IMG/VR virus record: IMGVR_UViG_3300023371_000089
Span: 64,001-111,658 of that record
Origin: a virus
Lineage: Duplodnaviria; Heunggongvirae; Uroviricota; Caudoviricetes
Length of the DNA stretch: 47,658 nucleotides
Direction: 5' to 3' (one strand)
Of the stretch, positions 14,050 to 40,186 are shown in pieces. Below the pieces are notes generated by a model, which worked only from the letters and a program-made list of their open reading frames with translations, had not been told where the DNA came from and made no database searches. The translations under genes and the position numbers were made by a program. Each line of letters begins with the position of its first letter. Positions within the stretch are counted from its first letter, which is position 1.

Positions 14050-14921
14050 TACTCTTCGGCTTCAATTATGTTATTATAATTCTGTGAGGTATCCACACTG
14101 TTTTTATTAAGTTTAATATCATAAAGAGGTTTACCAAGCCTTGTTTTAACAGTATAAGTCTCATACTGTTTGTAGATTTCATGGTCATTGTTATAAACAG
14201 TAAACGTACCATTGTCAAGATTACGCACTTGGTCGCCTTCCAACATATATGAAAGAGTCTCAGCATCATGGTCAACCATTTCTATTTCAAACATAACAGG
14301 ATTAAACTTAGTGTTGGAAATACGTACAACCTGTCCCGCTTCGCCAATACTTGGCATGAGGTTAGCAGTAAAACCATTTGCTGTTGAAGGGGTTACTGTA
14401 CAAAAAATCAATTTACCATTGCTCGAACCCGCATTTCCTGAATTGGTATATAGAGCAAATTTAGTTTGCCCTGCAGTAGGCACAACATAGCATTTATTAC
14501 TCGACGTTATTATACGTGTGAATTCTTCTTCAACATCTCCATACTGTATTCTATAACCTACCAAAGCATTATCAACATTAAGGCTTGAATCAAGTTTATC
14601 AGCCTCAAAAATAACACCACGAATATCAGAATAATTCTGAAGACTTGAAACTGCATAAATTGGGATTTCTATTTCCTTTGGCTTAATATAAATGGTATAT
14701 ATTCCCTTACTACCGAAAATAGATAACGGAAGTTTCATGTTATAAAGGCCATCAATATTTACCATGCCATCAGTTGTTGCCTTAATAAGATTAGATGTAT
14801 CCAATTTCTTGAAAGTAGTTGTACTATCATAACTCCTATCAGGTTTATAACTATAGAAAATCTCAACATCCTTATTGATGTTGATATTTGCAGGTTTTAC
14901 TGTTCCATATATTCCACTCAT
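14049..14921 (-). CDS. Conserved virion/baseplate-cluster hypothetical protein (290 aa)
   Basis: Open ORF with 1-nt TAATG overlap to the next gene. Confidence 0.75.
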   Translation of the reverse strand: MSGIYGTVKPANININKDVEIFYSYKPDRSYDSTTTFKKLDTSNLIKATTDGMVNIDGLYNMKLPLSIFGSKGIYTIYIKPKEIEIPIYAVSSLQNYSDIRGVIFEADKLDSSLNVDNALVGYRIQYGDVEEEFTRIITSSNKCYVVPTAGQTKFALYTNSGNAGSSNGKLIFCTVTPSTANGFTANLMPSIGEAGQVVRISNTKFNPVMFEIEMVDHDAETLSYMLEGDQVRNLDNGTFTVYNNDHEIYKQYETYTVKTRLGKPLYDIKLNKNSVDTSQNYNNIIEAEE

Positions 14922-29351: not shown

Positions 29352-29744
29352 TTAAATAACTCTTATCTGTATATTATCAGGTTCCTCAGTTTCCCCTTTC
29401 ATTATGCTGTAGCTTATATCTGCATAAACCCTATTTTCATTCTCCTCATCCATATAAAGAGATATGTCCTTAAATATTATCCTTGGAAGGTACTTAGATA
29501 CCTGTGATTTTATTTCACTCTTAATAGCACTCCATGCTTCATCATCGTTTGGTTCAAAAATATACTTAATCAAATTAGTACCAAAGTCGGGGTTCCTATA
29601 ACGCTGTCCCTTAGGCGTAAATATAATATGAAGCAATTCGCTCCTCATTTTATCTACATAAGTTTCATTAAGGTCAACGAAATAATTATTTTCAGACTCA
29701 TTCTGAAAAGGGTATTTTATACCAAAATATTGTTGTTTTGCCAT
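29352..29744 (-). CDS. Baseplate wedge / sheath-initiator protein (T4 gp25-like)
   Basis: GIKYPF...LLHIIFTPKGQRYRNPDFGTNLIKYIFEP matches the T..GeR...PdFG gp25 motif. Confidence 0.92.
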   Translation of the reverse strand: MAKQQYFGIKYPFQNESENNYFVDLNETYVDKMRSELLHIIFTPKGQRYRNPDFGTNLIKYIFEPNDDEAWSAIKSEIKSQVSKYLPRIIFKDISLYMDEENENRVYADISYSIMKGETEEPDNIQIRVI

Positions 29745-29762: not shown

Positions 29763-29770
29763 TATAAATA
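29763..29770 (-). promoter_or_regulatory. Putative late-promoter motif TATTTATA heading the baseplate operon
   Basis: 18 nt before the gp25-like ATG, downstream of the helicase terminator. Confidence 0.65.
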
Positions 29771-33362: not shown

Positions 33363-33479
33363 TTACTCCCCCTCATTATCTAAACCAGAAAAAAATTCCT
33401 CAAAATCCTCTCCATCCCAAAAAAAGAAATCGTCATCAATTTCATCATCAAACCATGTTTCATCAAAATCCCTTTCCAT
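33363..33479 (-). CDS. Unannotated 38-aa acidic/aromatic peptide MERDFDETWFDDEIDDDFFFWDGEDFEEFFSGLDNEGE
   Basis: Hand-translated from ATG 33479 to TAA 33363. 18 of 38 residues are D/E and 10 are F/W. The leader is GGTAGAGGAAAACTATA-ATG and the stop lies 4 nt before the exonuclease ATG. Confidence 0.7.
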   Translation of the reverse strand: MERDFDETWFDDEIDDDFFFWDGEDFEEFFSGLDNEGE

Positions 33480-33692: not shown

Positions 33693-35642
33693 TTACTTCA
33701 AATATTTTTCAGTAAAACCATCAATATCCATAATTTCAATACCCATCTTCTCAGCCTTTTTCATCTTGCTTGAATTTGAAGATAAGTCTTTAACAATCAA
33801 ACAGGTCGTGGCCTTTGTAACGCCATCACCAATAATACCACCAAGTTCCTCAATCTTCGAAAACATTTCTTGGTTTCTAAAACCTGTCACACAAACAACC
33901 ATCCCATTAAGAGGGCCTTCAGATACCGGGGTTGTGACATATGAAAATTTAAAATCCTCTACGAGTTCATTCCAAAATATAAGTTTCTCATATCCATCAA
34001 TGAATTTCTGAGCAGTAATTTCCTTAACACCCTCAATAGTAAGAAGATAATCCATTGCACAACCATCCATTCCACGAGCATCAATTATCTTCTGAAGAGT
34101 CTTTTCACCAAGGTCGGAAAACCATCCTGTGGCATGAAGAAACCTTGCAAACGGAAGTTCAGTCTTAATCCTATTCAGTTCAGATAAGAACTTATTGACG
34201 CTAACATCAGCCCATCCATCAAGGCCAATAAGGTCATCATATTGAAGGCCAAAGACCTCAAAATAGTTTTCTACTAAACCACATTCAAATAATTGGGTAA
34301 ATGTCTTTTCACCAAAACCATCAATGCCCGCAATTTCAAAAAATTTCACTAAAGAAGACAGTCTTCTTCCTTTACAGTAATCATTCACGCAAGCCATTTC
34401 ACACCAATCACCATCAGGCCCATAAACAGGTTGTAACTCATGTCCGCATATAGGACATTCATCCAATGAATTAACCTCATAATTATCAACCATCAGCATA
34501 GTAACACAAGACTTTCTCTCCTGAAGAGCAACCGCATATGCGTCTTCATACTCCTTGACCGTCTTATATTCTTCTCTGAAAGGAATCATCTTACCACCAA
34601 CCCCAATTACCTTAGGAATTACTTCTCCTGAACGAATAACAGTCACCATTTCCCCAGGATAAAGCATCCAATCATGGATATATCGCATATTAATCCCACT
34701 TACCCGCTGTATATCTGCACCCGCAAGATTAATAGACTCCTTAAGAATAAGAACCGGAGTTACAACACCCTCCCTATTAACACTACGTTCAATTCGGTCA
34801 ATTACCCCATAACCAACCTCAGAAAAACTTGGATGCTTATAAGCGACTGAATAACTTGGATTACCATTAGCCTCGACACTATGTCGATGCACATCCTCAT
34901 TAACATCTATCACAAGGCCGTCAATTGGATATAGTTGTTTCCACTGTATAAACATATTCAACAACTTTTCCTCAGTAAGATGATGTGGATTTGTTACCTT
35001 CTCATAGTTCTGATTCATCAATGCCATCAACTGCTCCTCCTTACTCGTCGTGGAACCTTGAATCTCATATGGCATCACTCTTAAAAGGGCGTACTCATTC
35101 TTCCTACCATTATCAAAATCTCCGTTAATCAAACCCGTTGCGGAATTCCTTTGGGACTTGGCACCCTCATTAATCTCCTTAAACTTTTTCCAATCGGCAT
35201 TGTCAATTATAATCTCCCCACGGACAACCATTTTTTCCGAAATGCTTGGTTTAAGATAAATTGCCGATACATGTTCAGTACAATCCTGCCCTGTTGTTCC
35301 ATCTCCCCTCGTCCACGATTTATCAGTACTCATTCCAACAGAAAGGCCATCATATTTAGGGGTAATGATAAACGTCGCATAAGGAAATTTCTTCATCCAA
35401 GCAATAAGGTCATCATAATTCTTAATCTTATCTAAAGACATCATTGGATAAGGTAATTTCATCTCCCTACTTTTAGGTTTTTCATCATTCACACCTTTCT
35501 TGAACCATTCATCATCAGGATTCATATCTCTAAGTTCCTGTTCAAGAGCATCATATTCAACATCGCTCATAATTGGAGTCCCTTCTCTATAAGCATCATT
35601 TGCTACCTTCAGTTCCTCCCTAATATTATTAATATTTCTCAT
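33693..35642 (-). CDS. ligA: NAD-dependent DNA ligase (649 aa)
   Basis: Domain Ia AYREGTPIMSDVEYD, adenylation motif KYDGLS, VRGE, PIDGLV, RSGEVIP, Zn finger CPIC...C...C, HhH repeats and BRCT. Confidence 0.95.
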   Translation of the reverse strand: MRNINNIREELKVANDAYREGTPIMSDVEYDALEQELRDMNPDDEWFKKGVNDEKPKSREMKLPYPMMSLDKIKNYDDLIAWMKKFPYATFIITPKYDGLSVGMSTDKSWTRGDGTTGQDCTEHVSAIYLKPSISEKMVVRGEIIIDNADWKKFKEINEGAKSQRNSATGLINGDFDNGRKNEYALLRVMPYEIQGSTTSKEEQLMALMNQNYEKVTNPHHLTEEKLLNMFIQWKQLYPIDGLVIDVNEDVHRHSVEANGNPSYSVAYKHPSFSEVGYGVIDRIERSVNREGVVTPVLILKESINLAGADIQRVSGINMRYIHDWMLYPGEMVTVIRSGEVIPKVIGVGGKMIPFREEYKTVKEYEDAYAVALQERKSCVTMLMVDNYEVNSLDECPICGHELQPVYGPDGDWCEMACVNDYCKGRRLSSLVKFFEIAGIDGFGEKTFTQLFECGLVENYFEVFGLQYDDLIGLDGWADVSVNKFLSELNRIKTELPFARFLHATGWFSDLGEKTLQKIIDARGMDGCAMDYLLTIEGVKEITAQKFIDGYEKLIFWNELVEDFKFSYVTTPVSEGPLNGMVVCVTGFRNQEMFSKIEELGGIIGDGVTKATTCLIVKDLSSNSSKMKKAEKMGIEIMDIDGFTEKYLK

Positions 35643-37597: not shown

Positions 37598-38599
37598 TTA
37601 GAATGGAAGGTCTTCCTCGTCCTTATCATCCATGAACATGGTATTCACCTCAGCCTCAGCCTTGGCCATCTGTTCTTCAACCTCAGATTCAACCTTTGCA
37701 TTAGCAGCGTCACGCTGTGCATCTGCAGTTGTCTTCGGAATCCACTTTCCTGATTCTCTATCAAACCAAGGAATCTCACCTGTACTGATAATTGAAAGAT
37801 ATTCATAAGGTTTAACAACAAAAACGTCACTCCACTTCTTTGTGTCGTTAATCCACTCACTCATGAGAGCCTCATCCTTAGAAATTGGTGTCTGAGAGAG
37901 AGCCTGTGTAACTGTTGTTGTTGTCTTATTATCCTTATCATTATCTGAACCCGAAATTGTAATAATAATGTCACGTCCCTTGAATGAATCATAAAGATTT
38001 TCCTCTACACCCTCTTCAAGTCCCTCCTTATAAAGGCGCTCCGCAAGCTTCTTAATGAGAGAATATGCATCATCACCTCTACGTGAGACATTTACTTTCC
38101 AAAACTTAGGTCCCTCAGATTCTTTGCCACGTTCAATTACGCGCATAATGATAGTCTCTCTTGCAATGTTTCCAAGAGATAGTTCTTTAAGTTTCTCCTT
38201 TTTGGTTGGGTCTGTTTCAGACACTGATTCATTATAAGCACTCCTCTGTAACTCACAGAAAGGACACTTCTTACCAAACTTCTCGTGGTCAATATCAGAC
38301 TTTTCAAGGCAGATGTATGACTTGAAACCTGATTCCGAAACCTCCTTTGGAAGCTTGTTTACTGAATGTGTGTGAACCTTGATAAATGGACTGTATCCGG
38401 GCTGTCCCGGATTAGGGAGAAGTCTGACTCTTATTTCCTTTGTCTTCTCACCATTCTTAAGACGTGTGTCAAGATAATTCTTAGGGTCAAATGAATTGAA
38501 CTTTGTTGTACCCTTATTTTCTCTCTTCGACTTCATTTCCTCCTCAATCTGAGCGAGTTCTGCAAAATTTACGCTAGGAATGTTAACCAAATTTCCCAT
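37598..38599 (-). CDS. Single-stranded DNA-binding protein (T4 gp32-like) (333 aa)
   Basis: IRVRLLP, YICL...CPFCE Zn-site pattern and acidic tail DDKDEEDLPF, within the replication block. Confidence 0.85.
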   Translation of the reverse strand: MGNLVNIPSVNFAELAQIEEEMKSKRENKGTTKFNSFDPKNYLDTRLKNGEKTKEIRVRLLPNPGQPGYSPFIKVHTHSVNKLPKEVSESGFKSYICLEKSDIDHEKFGKKCPFCELQRSAYNESVSETDPTKKEKLKELSLGNIARETIIMRVIERGKESEGPKFWKVNVSRRGDDAYSLIKKLAERLYKEGLEEGVEENLYDSFKGRDIIITISGSDNDKDNKTTTTVTQALSQTPISKDEALMSEWINDTKKWSDVFVVKPYEYLSIISTGEIPWFDRESGKWIPKTTADAQRDAANAKVESEVEEQMAKAEAEVNTMFMDDKDEEDLPF

Positions 38600-38644: not shown

Positions 38645-38675
38645 TAAAGATAGGTAAAAAAACGTTAAAAACAAA
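38645..38675 (-). promoter_or_regulatory. Bacteroidota-type promoter for the SSB
   Basis: TTTG (38675-38672), 19-nt spacer, TATCTTTA (one mismatch). Confidence 0.7.
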
Positions 38676-38695: not shown

Positions 38696-38724
38696 CGGTC
38701 ATCAGGGATATATCCCTGATGCCG
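38696..38724 (-). terminator. Hairpin terminator after rpsU
   Basis: Perfect palindrome CATCAGGGATATATCCCTGATG (38700-38721) extended by CGG/CCG; T-rich sequence follows further downstream on the minus strand. Confidence 0.7.
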
Positions 38725-38743: not shown

Positions 38744-38938
38744 CTAATTTTCGTGGTCAAGTTTATACTTGTTGGCATAAATTGCCTTCTTCATCTTTGT
38801 TCTGTGTTCGACAGAAGGCTTAACATATTCCTTCCTTTCTCTAAGTTGTTTAATTAATTTTGTCTGTTGTTCCTTTCTTTTGAATTTTTTGAGGGCTTTC
38901 TCTATTGTATCCCCCTCATTAACCTTAACAATAAGCAT
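38744..38938 (-). CDS. rpsU: Phage-encoded 30S ribosomal protein bS21, Bacteroidota type (64 aa)
   Basis: IEKALKKFKRK...LRERKEYVKPS...KAIY matches the bS21 family signature (ALxxFKR...R..y.KPS). Confidence 0.93.
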   Translation of the reverse strand: MLIVKVNEGDTIEKALKKFKRKEQQTKLIKQLRERKEYVKPSVEHRTKMKKAIYANKYKLDHEN

Positions 38939-38947
38939 TAATATAAT

Positions 38948-38952
38948 CTCCT
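38948..38952 (-). promoter_or_regulatory. Shine-Dalgarno sequence AGGAG of phage rpsU
   Basis: Leader reads TAA-AGAAT-AGGAG-ATTATATTA-ATG (9-nt spacer). Confidence 0.7.
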
Positions 38953-38957
38953 ATTCT

Positions 38958-39767
38958 TTAAAAATCAAAAATATTCTTAAGACTGTTTAATTCAGCCATA
39001 TCATCAAAAGATTTAGCGATTTCATTCCAATCCGATATACCATCAACATCGGCTTTTGTTATCTGATATTTAGGATTATCCTCGCCATTATTGTCATCTT
39101 CAACACTATAATTCTCAGGAGCCACATTCTGCCAATAGTTTTCAATTGACTGATTAAATGGGGCTGATTTCTGTTGACGAAGACTCATCTTCTCTTCAGC
39201 ATTTGGGGCGCGACGTTCAATCTCCTGTTTAAGGGATTCAATGCCCTGATTATTTGCTTCAACCTTATCTTGAAATTGAAGTATGAGGTTTTTCAGGTCT
39301 TTCAGTTCGTCAGAAACCCTTCCAACACCTTTAGCAGTCTCTTTCTGATAACCCGTAAGAGCATCTATGTCAATGACCTCGTCGCCATCTTCCATATCTT
39401 CAATATCCTCATCTTCCTCCGGTTCTTCAGTAGAAACATCTTCACCGCCCTGAGGATTCAGACCTTCAACACCCTGTTCGCCTTCAGCACCACCCATTTC
39501 AGGAGTCTCAGCACCTGTCTGTGGAGCAGGAGCATTTCCCATTGGACTTGTTGATGCAGCATCAGCCATATCCATACCGCCCATCGGGTCATTTCCACCC
39601 TCAGCACCGCCCATTGCAGGGTCAGCAGGGGCTGCAGGGGCGGCACCGGCCATAGGGTCCTCAGTAGGGTCCGCCTCAGTGATTCTTGTTGGAGCAATTG
39701 CCTGTGTATACTCCATTATTCGATTAAATCTATCTCTATAATCCGCTTCAGTCAATATCTTAGCCAT
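38958..39767 (-). CDS. Acidic, largely disordered protein with coiled coil; possible prohead scaffold/core protein (269 aa)
   Basis: Pro/Ala/Gly/Met-rich linker, EEPEEDEDIEDMED tract and heptad region. Function is an inference from composition and position. Confidence 0.65.
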   Translation of the reverse strand: MAKILTEADYRDRFNRIMEYTQAIAPTRITEADPTEDPMAGAAPAAPADPAMGGAEGGNDPMGGMDMADAASTSPMGNAPAPQTGAETPEMGGAEGEQGVEGLNPQGGEDVSTEEPEEDEDIEDMEDGDEVIDIDALTGYQKETAKGVGRVSDELKDLKNLILQFQDKVEANNQGIESLKQEIERRAPNAEEKMSLRQQKSAPFNQSIENYWQNVAPENYSVEDDNNGEDNPKYQITKADVDGISDWNEIAKSFDDMAELNSLKNIFDF

Positions 39768-39931
39768 TAGTCATTAAGTATTTGACGATTATCTTCAGTA
39801 AGAACCACTTTTGATGACTCTGTACGTTCAATGAGGCCATGGTTATTCCTAACCCTATTGATTCGGTTAGGGTCAATACCACTAAGAGCATTTACAAGTT
39901 CCTCAGCCTGTTTCAATTTATTCTCGTCCAT
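39767..39931 (-). CDS. Small hypothetical protein (54 aa, MDENK...VVLTEDNRQILND)
   Basis: Start reassigned to ATG 39931, which overlaps the upstream gene by 14 nt. TAATG coupling to the next gene. Confidence 0.7.
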   Translation of the reverse strand: MDENKLKQAEELVNALSGIDPNRINRVRNNHGLIERTESSKVVLTEDNRQILND

Positions 39932-40160
39932 CTTCTTCAACTTTTTCTTCTTTATCTTTGTCCACCTTTTCACTCTTTTTAGGTTTACGTTTAACCTCAA
40001 CGGGAGTTTCAATAACAGTGGGTTCAATTTTTTCTACATTTATGTCATTTGTTATCACAACAGGTTCAATAACAGTAGGCTCAGCACTTCGTTTTACCAT
40101 TATTCTACTGTCAAACCTATCTTGACGAACATTTCTTGCTTTTTTCGAAACATAAAGCAT
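39918..40160 (-). CDS. Small charged hypothetical protein (80 aa)
   Basis: ATG 18 nt downstream of a TATTTATA motif; repeated (V/I)EPTVIE. Confidence 0.7.
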   Translation of the reverse strand: MLYVSKKARNVRQDRFDSRIMVKRSAEPTVIEPVVITNDINVEKIEPTVIETPVEVKRKPKKSEKVDKDKEEKVEEDGRE

Positions 40161-40178
40161 AACTGCACAATATTTTCA

Positions 40179-40186
40179 TATAAATA
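40179..40186 (-). promoter_or_regulatory. Putative late-promoter motif TATTTATA heading the operon that ends in rpsU
   Basis: 18 nt before the 40160 ATG. Confidence 0.65.

Follow-up and report, generated by a model that had tools for sequence, protein, structure and literature searches.

Known systems of bS21 synthesis control

Ribosomes of Bacteroidia hide the anti-Shine-Dalgarno (anti-SD) sequence of 16S rRNA in a pocket formed by ribosomal proteins bS21, bS18, and bS6 (PMC7797042, PMC9976891, PMC13000453, PMC13000457), and Tyr54 of Flavobacterium johnsoniae bS21 stacks on A1534 (PMC7797042). When bS21 is missing, ribosomes initiate more efficiently on mRNAs with an SD and less efficiently on those without one (PMC9976891). 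Such specialized Bacteroidia ribosomes represent the clearest bacterial case of functional ribosome heterogeneity. The gene for bS21, rpsU, is autoregulated via its SD in F. johnsoniae (PMC7797042, PMC9976891). This circuit employs an extended SD that pairs over 9 to 13 bp with an energy below -13 kcal/mol (PMC9976891), and its natural 13-bp helix acts in part by sterically ejecting bS21 (PMC13000457). In F. johnsoniae reporters, AGGA showed no response to bS21 loss, while AGGAGGU responded ~2-fold (PMC9976891). The preliminary description of the DNA studied here had set out both the hidden anti-SD and the F. johnsoniae autoregulation, in agreement with the published accounts (PMC7797042, PMC9976891). 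In Bacteroidales, rpsU was reported to lack an SD (0 of 104; PMC7797042; see also PMC13000457). Many Bacteroidales ribosomal genes have SDs of -7 kcal/mol or stronger (PMC7797042).

bS21 is the commonest ribosomal protein encoded by viruses. Phage bS21 was proposed to replace host bS21 (PMC9723584, PMC6375957), and McNutt et al. go no further than the speculation that autoregulation in the host might counter phage bS21 (PMC9976891). Both phage bS21 and the SD-based control of pocket-protein genes are already known; we found no report of an SD on phage rpsU in the literature consulted. A selectively maintained SD on the bS21 gene of a phage whose genome otherwise avoids SDs, as described below, connects phage bS21 with ribosome heterogeneity.

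A Bacteroidia-type bS21 gene in a clade of gut phages

The window, i.e., the whole stretch of DNA analyzed here, comprises the last 47,658 bases of a 111,658-bp phage contig (35% G+C). An open reading frame on its minus strand (38744..38938) encodes a 64-aa protein that matches the Pfam Ribosomal_S21 family (PF01165; E 5.9e-14, 52 bits, curated cut-off 27) as well as PHROG 21469 (S21). The protein aligns without gaps from residue 1 with the bS21 chains 9i5v_9 and 7jil_z (F. johnsoniae), its best solved Bacteroidota relatives, which confirms the rpsU start codon. Tyr54 is in register with Tyr54 of the F. johnsoniae chain and is retained across all members of the phage clade, and the C-terminal part is weakly basic (6 K+R and 3 D+E in residues 43 to 64). 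With these two features, the phage protein shows the full signature described for Bacteroidia-type bS21 (PMC7797042).

Codons 23 to 28 (window 38855-38872) encode EQQTKL in all clade members, as opposed to F(E/D)(K/R)TG in every bacterial bS21 compared. This clade-specific stretch replaces a motif that is nearly invariant among those bacterial proteins. Position 55 (A, V, or L) likewise differs from all host sequences.

Among GenBank phages, no related phage was found at the DNA level. In the protein collection searched, 23 bS21 sequences are 67 to 92% identical to the phage protein. Their contigs come from animal-gut metagenomes, with ruminants and sheep indicated by the names of the records and the labels of the runs. 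The gene order is common to all of them, namely a giant protein, a 199-aa protein, a protein of ~80 aa, a 54-aa protein in most relatives, an acidic protein of 260 to 287 aa, rpsU, a gp32-like single-strand DNA-binding protein (SSB), thymidine kinase, and a UvsX-like recombinase, and this synteny is kept across more than 15 metagenomic contigs. The bS21 genes of the clade are flanked by phage genes, and a baseplate wedge gene lies in the same window, as expected of phage-encoded bS21.

Contigs with identical or near-identical bS21 (clusters P0001, P0002, and P0010) reach 300 to 350 kb. The 111.6-kb contig is therefore probably a fragment of a jumbo-phage genome.

An SD precedes phage rpsU

The rpsU leader on the minus strand reads TAA-AGAAT-AGGAG-ATTATATTA-ATG. 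It is made up of the stop codon of the upstream 269-aa gene (38958-38960), AGAAT (38953-38957), the SD core AGGAG (38948..38952), a 9-nt A/T spacer (38939..38947), and the rpsU start codon (38936-38938), which confirms the arrangement AGAAT-AGGAG-9 nt-ATG given in the preliminary description. The core is complementary to CUCCU of the 16S 3' tail, with a computed duplex energy of -7.3 kcal/mol, and lies at a working distance from the ATG (9 nt here and 7 to 10 nt in relatives, in which the spacer sequence is not conserved). A leader RNA switch was not seen, as the leader displayed no conserved secondary structure (consensus energy of 0, single-sequence z-score of -0.69).

To place this SD in its genomic setting, we called genes over the whole 111,658-bp contig by a codon-usage score, which yielded 107 genes, 82 of them on the minus strand, at a coding density of 94%. 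Positions -20 to -4 of each start were scored against ACCUCCUUU with ViennaRNA duplexfold. The median anti-SD energy over the 107 starts was +0.1 kcal/mol, and rpsU (-7.3 kcal/mol) ranked 6th; this scoring covers the 111.6-kb contig only, while related contigs reach 300 to 350 kb. Among the 67 genes with a free leader of at least 10 nt, rpsU is the sole one with a start at -7 kcal/mol or below. The next-best free leaders score -5.8 kcal/mol (AGAGG before a 38-aa peptide gene, 33363-33479) and -3.6 kcal/mol. The claim that rpsU stands out holds for the free leaders of this contig. Ten minus-strand leaders previously listed as SD-less do lack an SD (+2.8 to -1.5 kcal/mol), and the AGGAG before the gene starting at 14921 is indeed only 2 nt from its ATG, just as the AGAGG of the peptide gene had been read correctly.

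SD-like words are rarer in free leaders than inside genes: 2 of 67 leaders reach -5 kcal/mol, compared to 81 of 488 windows within genes (Fisher p = 0.0016). The same depletion was described for Flavobacteriales by McNutt et al. (PMC9976891). The leaders consist of 81% A+T, and the chance of GGAG occurring in a 14-nt window of this composition is 0.011.

The five sites stronger than that of rpsU belong to contig starts 65762 (window 1762), 10155, 10883, 47496, and 51966. In all five cases the gene start overlaps or abuts the preceding gene, so that the purine run falls in coding sequence. In the sole relative obtained from one metagenome scan (L137, 71% identical), GGAG is found 14 nt before the ATG of the 242-aa gene, inside the end of the upstream gene; the 195-aa gene, which also has one of the stronger sites, is absent from this relative. 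On this thin evidence, the five stronger sites appear to be incidental to coding. Overlapping starts at -7 kcal/mol or below amount to 5 of 39, versus 4.3% inside genes (p about 0.03).

The SD core is conserved while its surroundings diverge

The preliminary description had proposed examining related bS21 phages for the SD, and its conservation was borne out, with one exception. In 14 of 15 distinct rpsU leaders, AGGAG, AGGAGG, AAAGGAG, GAGGAG, or AGAGGAG is kept, ending 7 to 10 nt before the ATG. The SDs of these 14 leaders have energies of -7.3 to -10.2 kcal/mol against a 9-nt tail and pair over 5 to 7 bp; with a 15-nt tail, the energy reaches at most -10.2 kcal/mol. The 6-kb loci of eight relatives were scored as well, and in every one of them no start other than that of rpsU reached -7 kcal/mol. 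The sequences flanking the core vary (AAAAAAGGAGAAAAAAAG, GAAGAGGAGAAAAGATACA, and TTTTTAGGAGGATTTAAAGC; AAAAAAGGAGAAAA, GAAGAGGAGAAA, and TTTAGGAGGATT), as does the intergenic length (13 to 31 nt). The third-codon identity of relatives' rpsU to the window gene is only 44 to 68%, and of 33 synonymous third positions just 5 are the same in all 13 SD-bearing lineages compared. A four-base SD core that survives while flanks and synonymous sites diverge is under purifying selection. Judged from these comparisons, AGGAG is a genuine, selectively maintained SD element, which would act by pairing with the anti-SD.

The exception is L138, whose bS21 is 67% identical and whose synteny is the same, and which has an A-rich leader without an SD. 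In the tree, L138 branches within the clade, with L045 beside it. Its position within an SD-bearing clade indicates that the loss of the SD is secondary, and its existence that the SD is dispensable.

rpsU is the last cistron of a four-gene operon

Upstream of rpsU on the minus strand lie genes encoding proteins of 80 aa (39918..40160; 67 to 87 aa at this place in relatives), 54 aa (39767..39931, overlapping both neighbors; 54 to 58 aa in most relatives), and 269 aa (38958..39767; syntenic in all relatives). In three relatives (L043-L046), one gene of 118 to 120 aa replaces the 80-aa/54-aa pair. The 269-aa protein is highly acidic (61 D+E, 21 K+R), with long Pro/Ala/Gly/Glu-rich stretches, and its gene is always linked to rpsU in the relatives. 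No Pfam or PHROG match was found for the 80-, 54-, and 269-aa proteins or for the 199- and 1711-aa proteins. The first three genes overlap one another, while 19 nt separate the stop codon of the 269-aa gene from the rpsU ATG; rpsU is the only operon gene that does not overlap its upstream neighbor. No other uncoupled internal cistron of the contig has an SD.

A terminator-like hairpin with a perfect 9-bp stem and a 4-nt loop (38700..38721, minus strand) follows 22 nt after the rpsU stop codon. It is missed by a simple terminator scan because its T-run begins 8 nt after the stem. Relatives keep a hairpin at this place with different stem sequences, in several cases with a T-run directly after it. 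Farther downstream on the same strand, a Bacteroidota-type promoter, TTTG-N19-TATCTTTA (38645..38675; TATATTTG at this site in relatives), precedes the gene for the gp32-like SSB (37598..38599; Pfam PF08804, E 9.9e-14; PHROG 1192). As predicted from these elements, the operon consists of the 80-aa, 54-aa, and 269-aa genes and rpsU, followed by the hairpin, and another transcription unit begins with the SSB promoter.

At the other end of the operon, a TATTTATA motif (40179..40186, minus strand) lies 26 nt before the 80-aa gene and is a candidate phage-specific promoter. Its ATTTAT core is present at this site in all 9 distinct relatives, and the full TATTTATA in 7 of the 9. Twelve of the 18 occurrences of TATTTATA on the contig (both strands) are located 23 to 67 nt upstream of gene starts. 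In the window these sites are 40179-40186, 29763-29770, 8832, 7786, and 6029, and seven more lie elsewhere on the contig. The gene behind 29763-29770 encodes the baseplate wedge protein (29352-29744; PHROG 261, E 1.5e-16), while most large proteins encoded behind TATTTATA have no Pfam or PHROG match. Unlike the TATTTATA genes, the replication genes carry host-type TAnnTTTG promoters. The motif would fit a phage-specific and possibly late promoter class. Late synthesis of bS21, as previously suggested, is not supported beyond the sharing of this motif by the rpsU operon and the baseplate wedge gene.

An intrinsic terminator was noted on the contig at about 34489-34519 (L159:1190-1220, minus strand). 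Its stem, AAAGGAGGAC-UUCG-GUCUUCCUUU, has one SD-like and one anti-SD-like arm, and it comes after a 169-aa gene (outside the 107 called) and before a TATATTTG promoter. A small RNA complementary to the anti-SD was considered and rejected, as the sole intergenic AAAGGAGG of the contig is the 5' arm of a UUCG-loop terminator hairpin.

Bacteroidales hosts and their rpsU and rpsR leaders

The 80 nearest bacterial bS21 sequences (at most 60% identity) are almost all from Bacteroidales of gut and rumen. The genes for the SSB, the recombinase, the ligase, and the 199-aa protein have Bacteroidota-type TTTG-N19-TAnnTTTG promoters in front of them, both here and in relatives. The predicted host context is Bacteroidales, an assignment made to the order level only. 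A comparison of 20 kb of the window with 401 genomes of this order produced no spacer-like perfect match, and only short A/T-rich or thymidine-kinase/rpsU-like matches were returned. The canonical 16S end, GGCTGGAACACCTCCTTT, was present in three of the five Bacteroidales genomes checked.

In 59 of these 80 bacteria, the best match in the rpsU leader is weaker than -5 kcal/mol. The preliminary description regarded the phage SD as a possible hijacked bS21 feedback sensor; with most Bacteroidales rpsU genes lacking an SD, among these neighbors as well as in the published set (0 of 104; PMC7797042), there is perhaps no host rpsU circuit to hijack, and the idea is weakened accordingly. Eighteen of the 80, however, carry an extended AAAGGAGGTG of -11.8 to -13.2 kcal/mol in the same scoring. 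One of these is labeled Flavobacteriales, and 17 have Bacteroidales-type labels, i.e., Bacteroidales, Bacteroidia, or Cryptobacteroides, including ruminant MAGs (L050, L055-L057, L060, L064, L065, L067-L070, L095, L101-L103, L124, and L126; rpsU at about 1470-1500 of each locus). The occurrence of AAAGGAGGTG on 17 Bacteroidales-type rpsU genes qualifies the published statement that the SD is lacking.

The phage clade (100/100, on a long stem) was placed beside three SD-less Prevotellaceae bS21 sequences in a first tree (95/89). Once three long-branch Flavobacteriales sequences and those of the other phages were omitted, the best tree no longer contained this grouping. On an alignment of 64 columns, both the Prevotellaceae grouping (p = 0.245) and a placement with the SD-bearing hosts (p = 0.43) were compatible with AU tests.

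The gene for another pocket protein, bS18, offers a closer match. In five Bacteroidales genomes, rpsR is preceded by AAGGAG, GAGGA, AAAGGAG, or AAGGAGG with energies of -5.9 to -11.1 kcal/mol, and the purine core ends ~8 to 11 nt before the ATG, so that these SDs and that of phage rpsU fall into one class. Phage rpsU has all features of a moderate SD of the rpsR type, i.e., a core of 5 to 7 nt, an energy of ~-7 to -12 kcal/mol, a distance of 7 to 10 nt, and a position on a gene for a platform-pocket protein. It shares core length, energy, spacing, the likely host order, and a pocket-protein product with the rpsR SDs of Bacteroidales (PMC7797042), for which feedback by bS18 was proposed (PMC13000457). 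It differs in that the SD sits on a phage-borne bS21 gene, while most Bacteroidales rpsU genes have none. The phage SD also has a bearing on what the moderate SDs on ribosomal genes of Bacteroidales, as yet unexplained, do.

Possible feedback on phage bS21 supply

Phage rpsU resembles the autoregulated rpsU of F. johnsoniae and other Bacteroidota (Jha 2021, PMC7797042; McNutt 2023, PMC9976891; 2026 structures, PMC13000457 and PMC13000453) in having an SD on the bS21 gene, in the avoidance of SDs by the other leaders, and in Tyr54, and the logic of ribosomes with an exposed tail may apply to it as well. Differences are apparent as well. The phage gene comes last in its operon of four genes, while the host gene is monocistronic, and the steric clash between helix and bS21 requires a long helix, while the phage SD pairs over 5 to 7 bp with -7.3 to -10.2 kcal/mol, short of the 9 to 13 bp and the energy below -13 kcal/mol of the extended SD. 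For the proposal that the phage has kept or re-evolved the bS21 circuit, the SD, the selection on it, and Tyr54 are in favor; the extended SD on which the F. johnsoniae circuit depends is absent.

With the anti-SD hidden in the bS21/bS18/bS6 pocket, replete ribosomes gain nothing from an SD. Most likely, the rpsU SD is recognized by 30S subunits in which an incomplete pocket leaves the 16S tail uncovered; these would be either newly made subunits or ones that have lost bS21, bS18, or bS6. Phage bS21 would then fill the bS21 site and, with Tyr54 kept, should hide the tail again, resulting in negative feedback. Synthesis of phage bS21 would rise as bS21-poor subunits accumulate and fall once they are filled, so that the arrangement could work as a low-gain homeostat, like rpsU and the proposed rpsR feedback of Bacteroidia. 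Since the phage SD lies between AGGA and AGGAGGU and cannot form a long helix, we regard it as a tentative reading, somewhat short of an even chance, that the SD is functional, that 30S subunits with their anti-SD uncovered use it, and that it gives feedback on phage bS21 supply. It is a slightly more doubtful idea that the phage clade wired its own bS21 with a short SD of the rpsR type, such that the protein is made preferentially on, and delivered to, 30S subunits with an open pocket, and that this homeostat may keep ribosomes SD-blind and efficient on SD-less phage mRNAs once host bS21 fails. If true, the phage paralogue would be loaded onto exactly the vacant ribosomes. A single 5-nt element would provide a simple handle on whether phages exploit or maintain a subpopulation of bS21-less ribosomes.

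The strongest competitor is a plain constitutive SD, as on Bacteroidales rpsR, rplI, rplE, and rplF, among others, that helps an uncoupled internal cistron and does not sense bS21 occupancy. Strength and spacing do match those of host rpsR SDs scored alike, SDs of -7 kcal/mol or stronger are found on many Bacteroidales ribosomal genes (PMC7797042), and rpsU alone in its operon lacks an upstream overlap. However, replete Bacteroidia ribosomes were reported to be SD-blind (PMC7797042, PMC9976891), so that a moderate SD would need subunits with an exposed tail as well, whereby the feedback would return, and the remaining uncoupled internal cistrons of the contig manage without an SD. We regard this explanation as unlikely, if worth keeping in mind. 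Much less probable is a feed-forward scheme in which ribosomes with phage bS21 expose the anti-SD and therefore translate the SD-led phage rpsU better. The divergence of phage bS21 from all hosts at residues 23 to 28 (EQQTKL versus FEKTG) and at position 55 would suit such a change of function, but Tyr54 and the weakly basic C terminus are retained, and with rpsU as the sole SD-bearing free leader, freed tails would serve no other gene. This makes the scheme very improbable.

The motif might also be no SD at all. It is common for ribosomal proteins and proteins of phages to repress their own mRNAs, and GGAG could be the central part of a site bound by a protein or by an RNA different from 16S rRNA, e.g., a phage translational repressor or bS21 on its own mRNA. 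Many relatives have TAGGAGAT in common, in keeping with such a site; yet only four to five bases are invariant over the 14 leaders, with differing flanks (AAAAAAGGAGAAAA, GAAGAGGAGAAA, and TTTAGGAGGATT), the spacing from the ATG corresponds precisely to that of an SD, and there is no conserved structure, which leaves a binding site improbable. We give the least credence of all to the motif being a neutral relic of a donor leader, or a chance match, without present function. A donor could be sought among the 18 of 80 bacterial rpsU genes with AAAGGAGGTG, with which the AU test allows the phage to group (p = 0.43), and the motif is absent from L138. Neutrality is difficult to reconcile with a core kept in 14 of 15 leaders when 5 of 33 synonymous sites are invariant and the intergenic length ranges from 13 to 31 nt, and chance with a probability of 0.011 for GGAG in a leader-like 14-mer.

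SDs on the rpsU genes of other phages

More distant relatives, with SSB proteins ~40% identical, have no rpsU beside the SSB gene, and most other phage bS21 genes examined lack an SD, which makes the gene and its SD features of this clade. A large IMG/VR clade has the conserved SD-less leader AATTTAAATTAAATTA-ATG, and L001, L002, and L013 are likewise without an SD. This clade with A/T leaders may be that of Chen 2022 (PMC9723584). The bS21 proteins described earlier from Bacteroidota phages (Chen 2022, PMC9723584) and from Pelagibacter phage HTVC008M (Mizuno 2019, PMC6375957) resemble the present one in the aromatic residue 54 and in a non-host promoter motif. In contrast to those reports, in which no SD on the phage gene is described, the clade studied here is from animal gut, and its rpsU lies beside replication genes rather than terminase, portal, or capsid genes.

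AGGAGG precedes a TTG start in L003 and L005, whose strongly basic C termini show that they are not of the Bacteroidia type. Three of the huge phages reported by Al-Shayeb et al., LR756502, LR756504, and LR745206, lack an SD before rpsU. The 735-kb phage LR756501 (Al-Shayeb 2020, PMC7162821; L148/L158) encodes a bS21 with Tyr54 behind AAAGGAGG, as the present clade has Tyr54 behind its SD, in a gene at ~542900-543130. It differs from the present clade in its 4-nt spacer before the ATG, in the commonness of SD-like starts, and in belonging to an unrelated phage lineage: none of the 86 starts scored over 46 kb has a stronger SD than its rpsU, and 13 of the 86 score -7 kcal/mol or below. SDs on phage rpsU thus appear to recur sporadically outside this clade.
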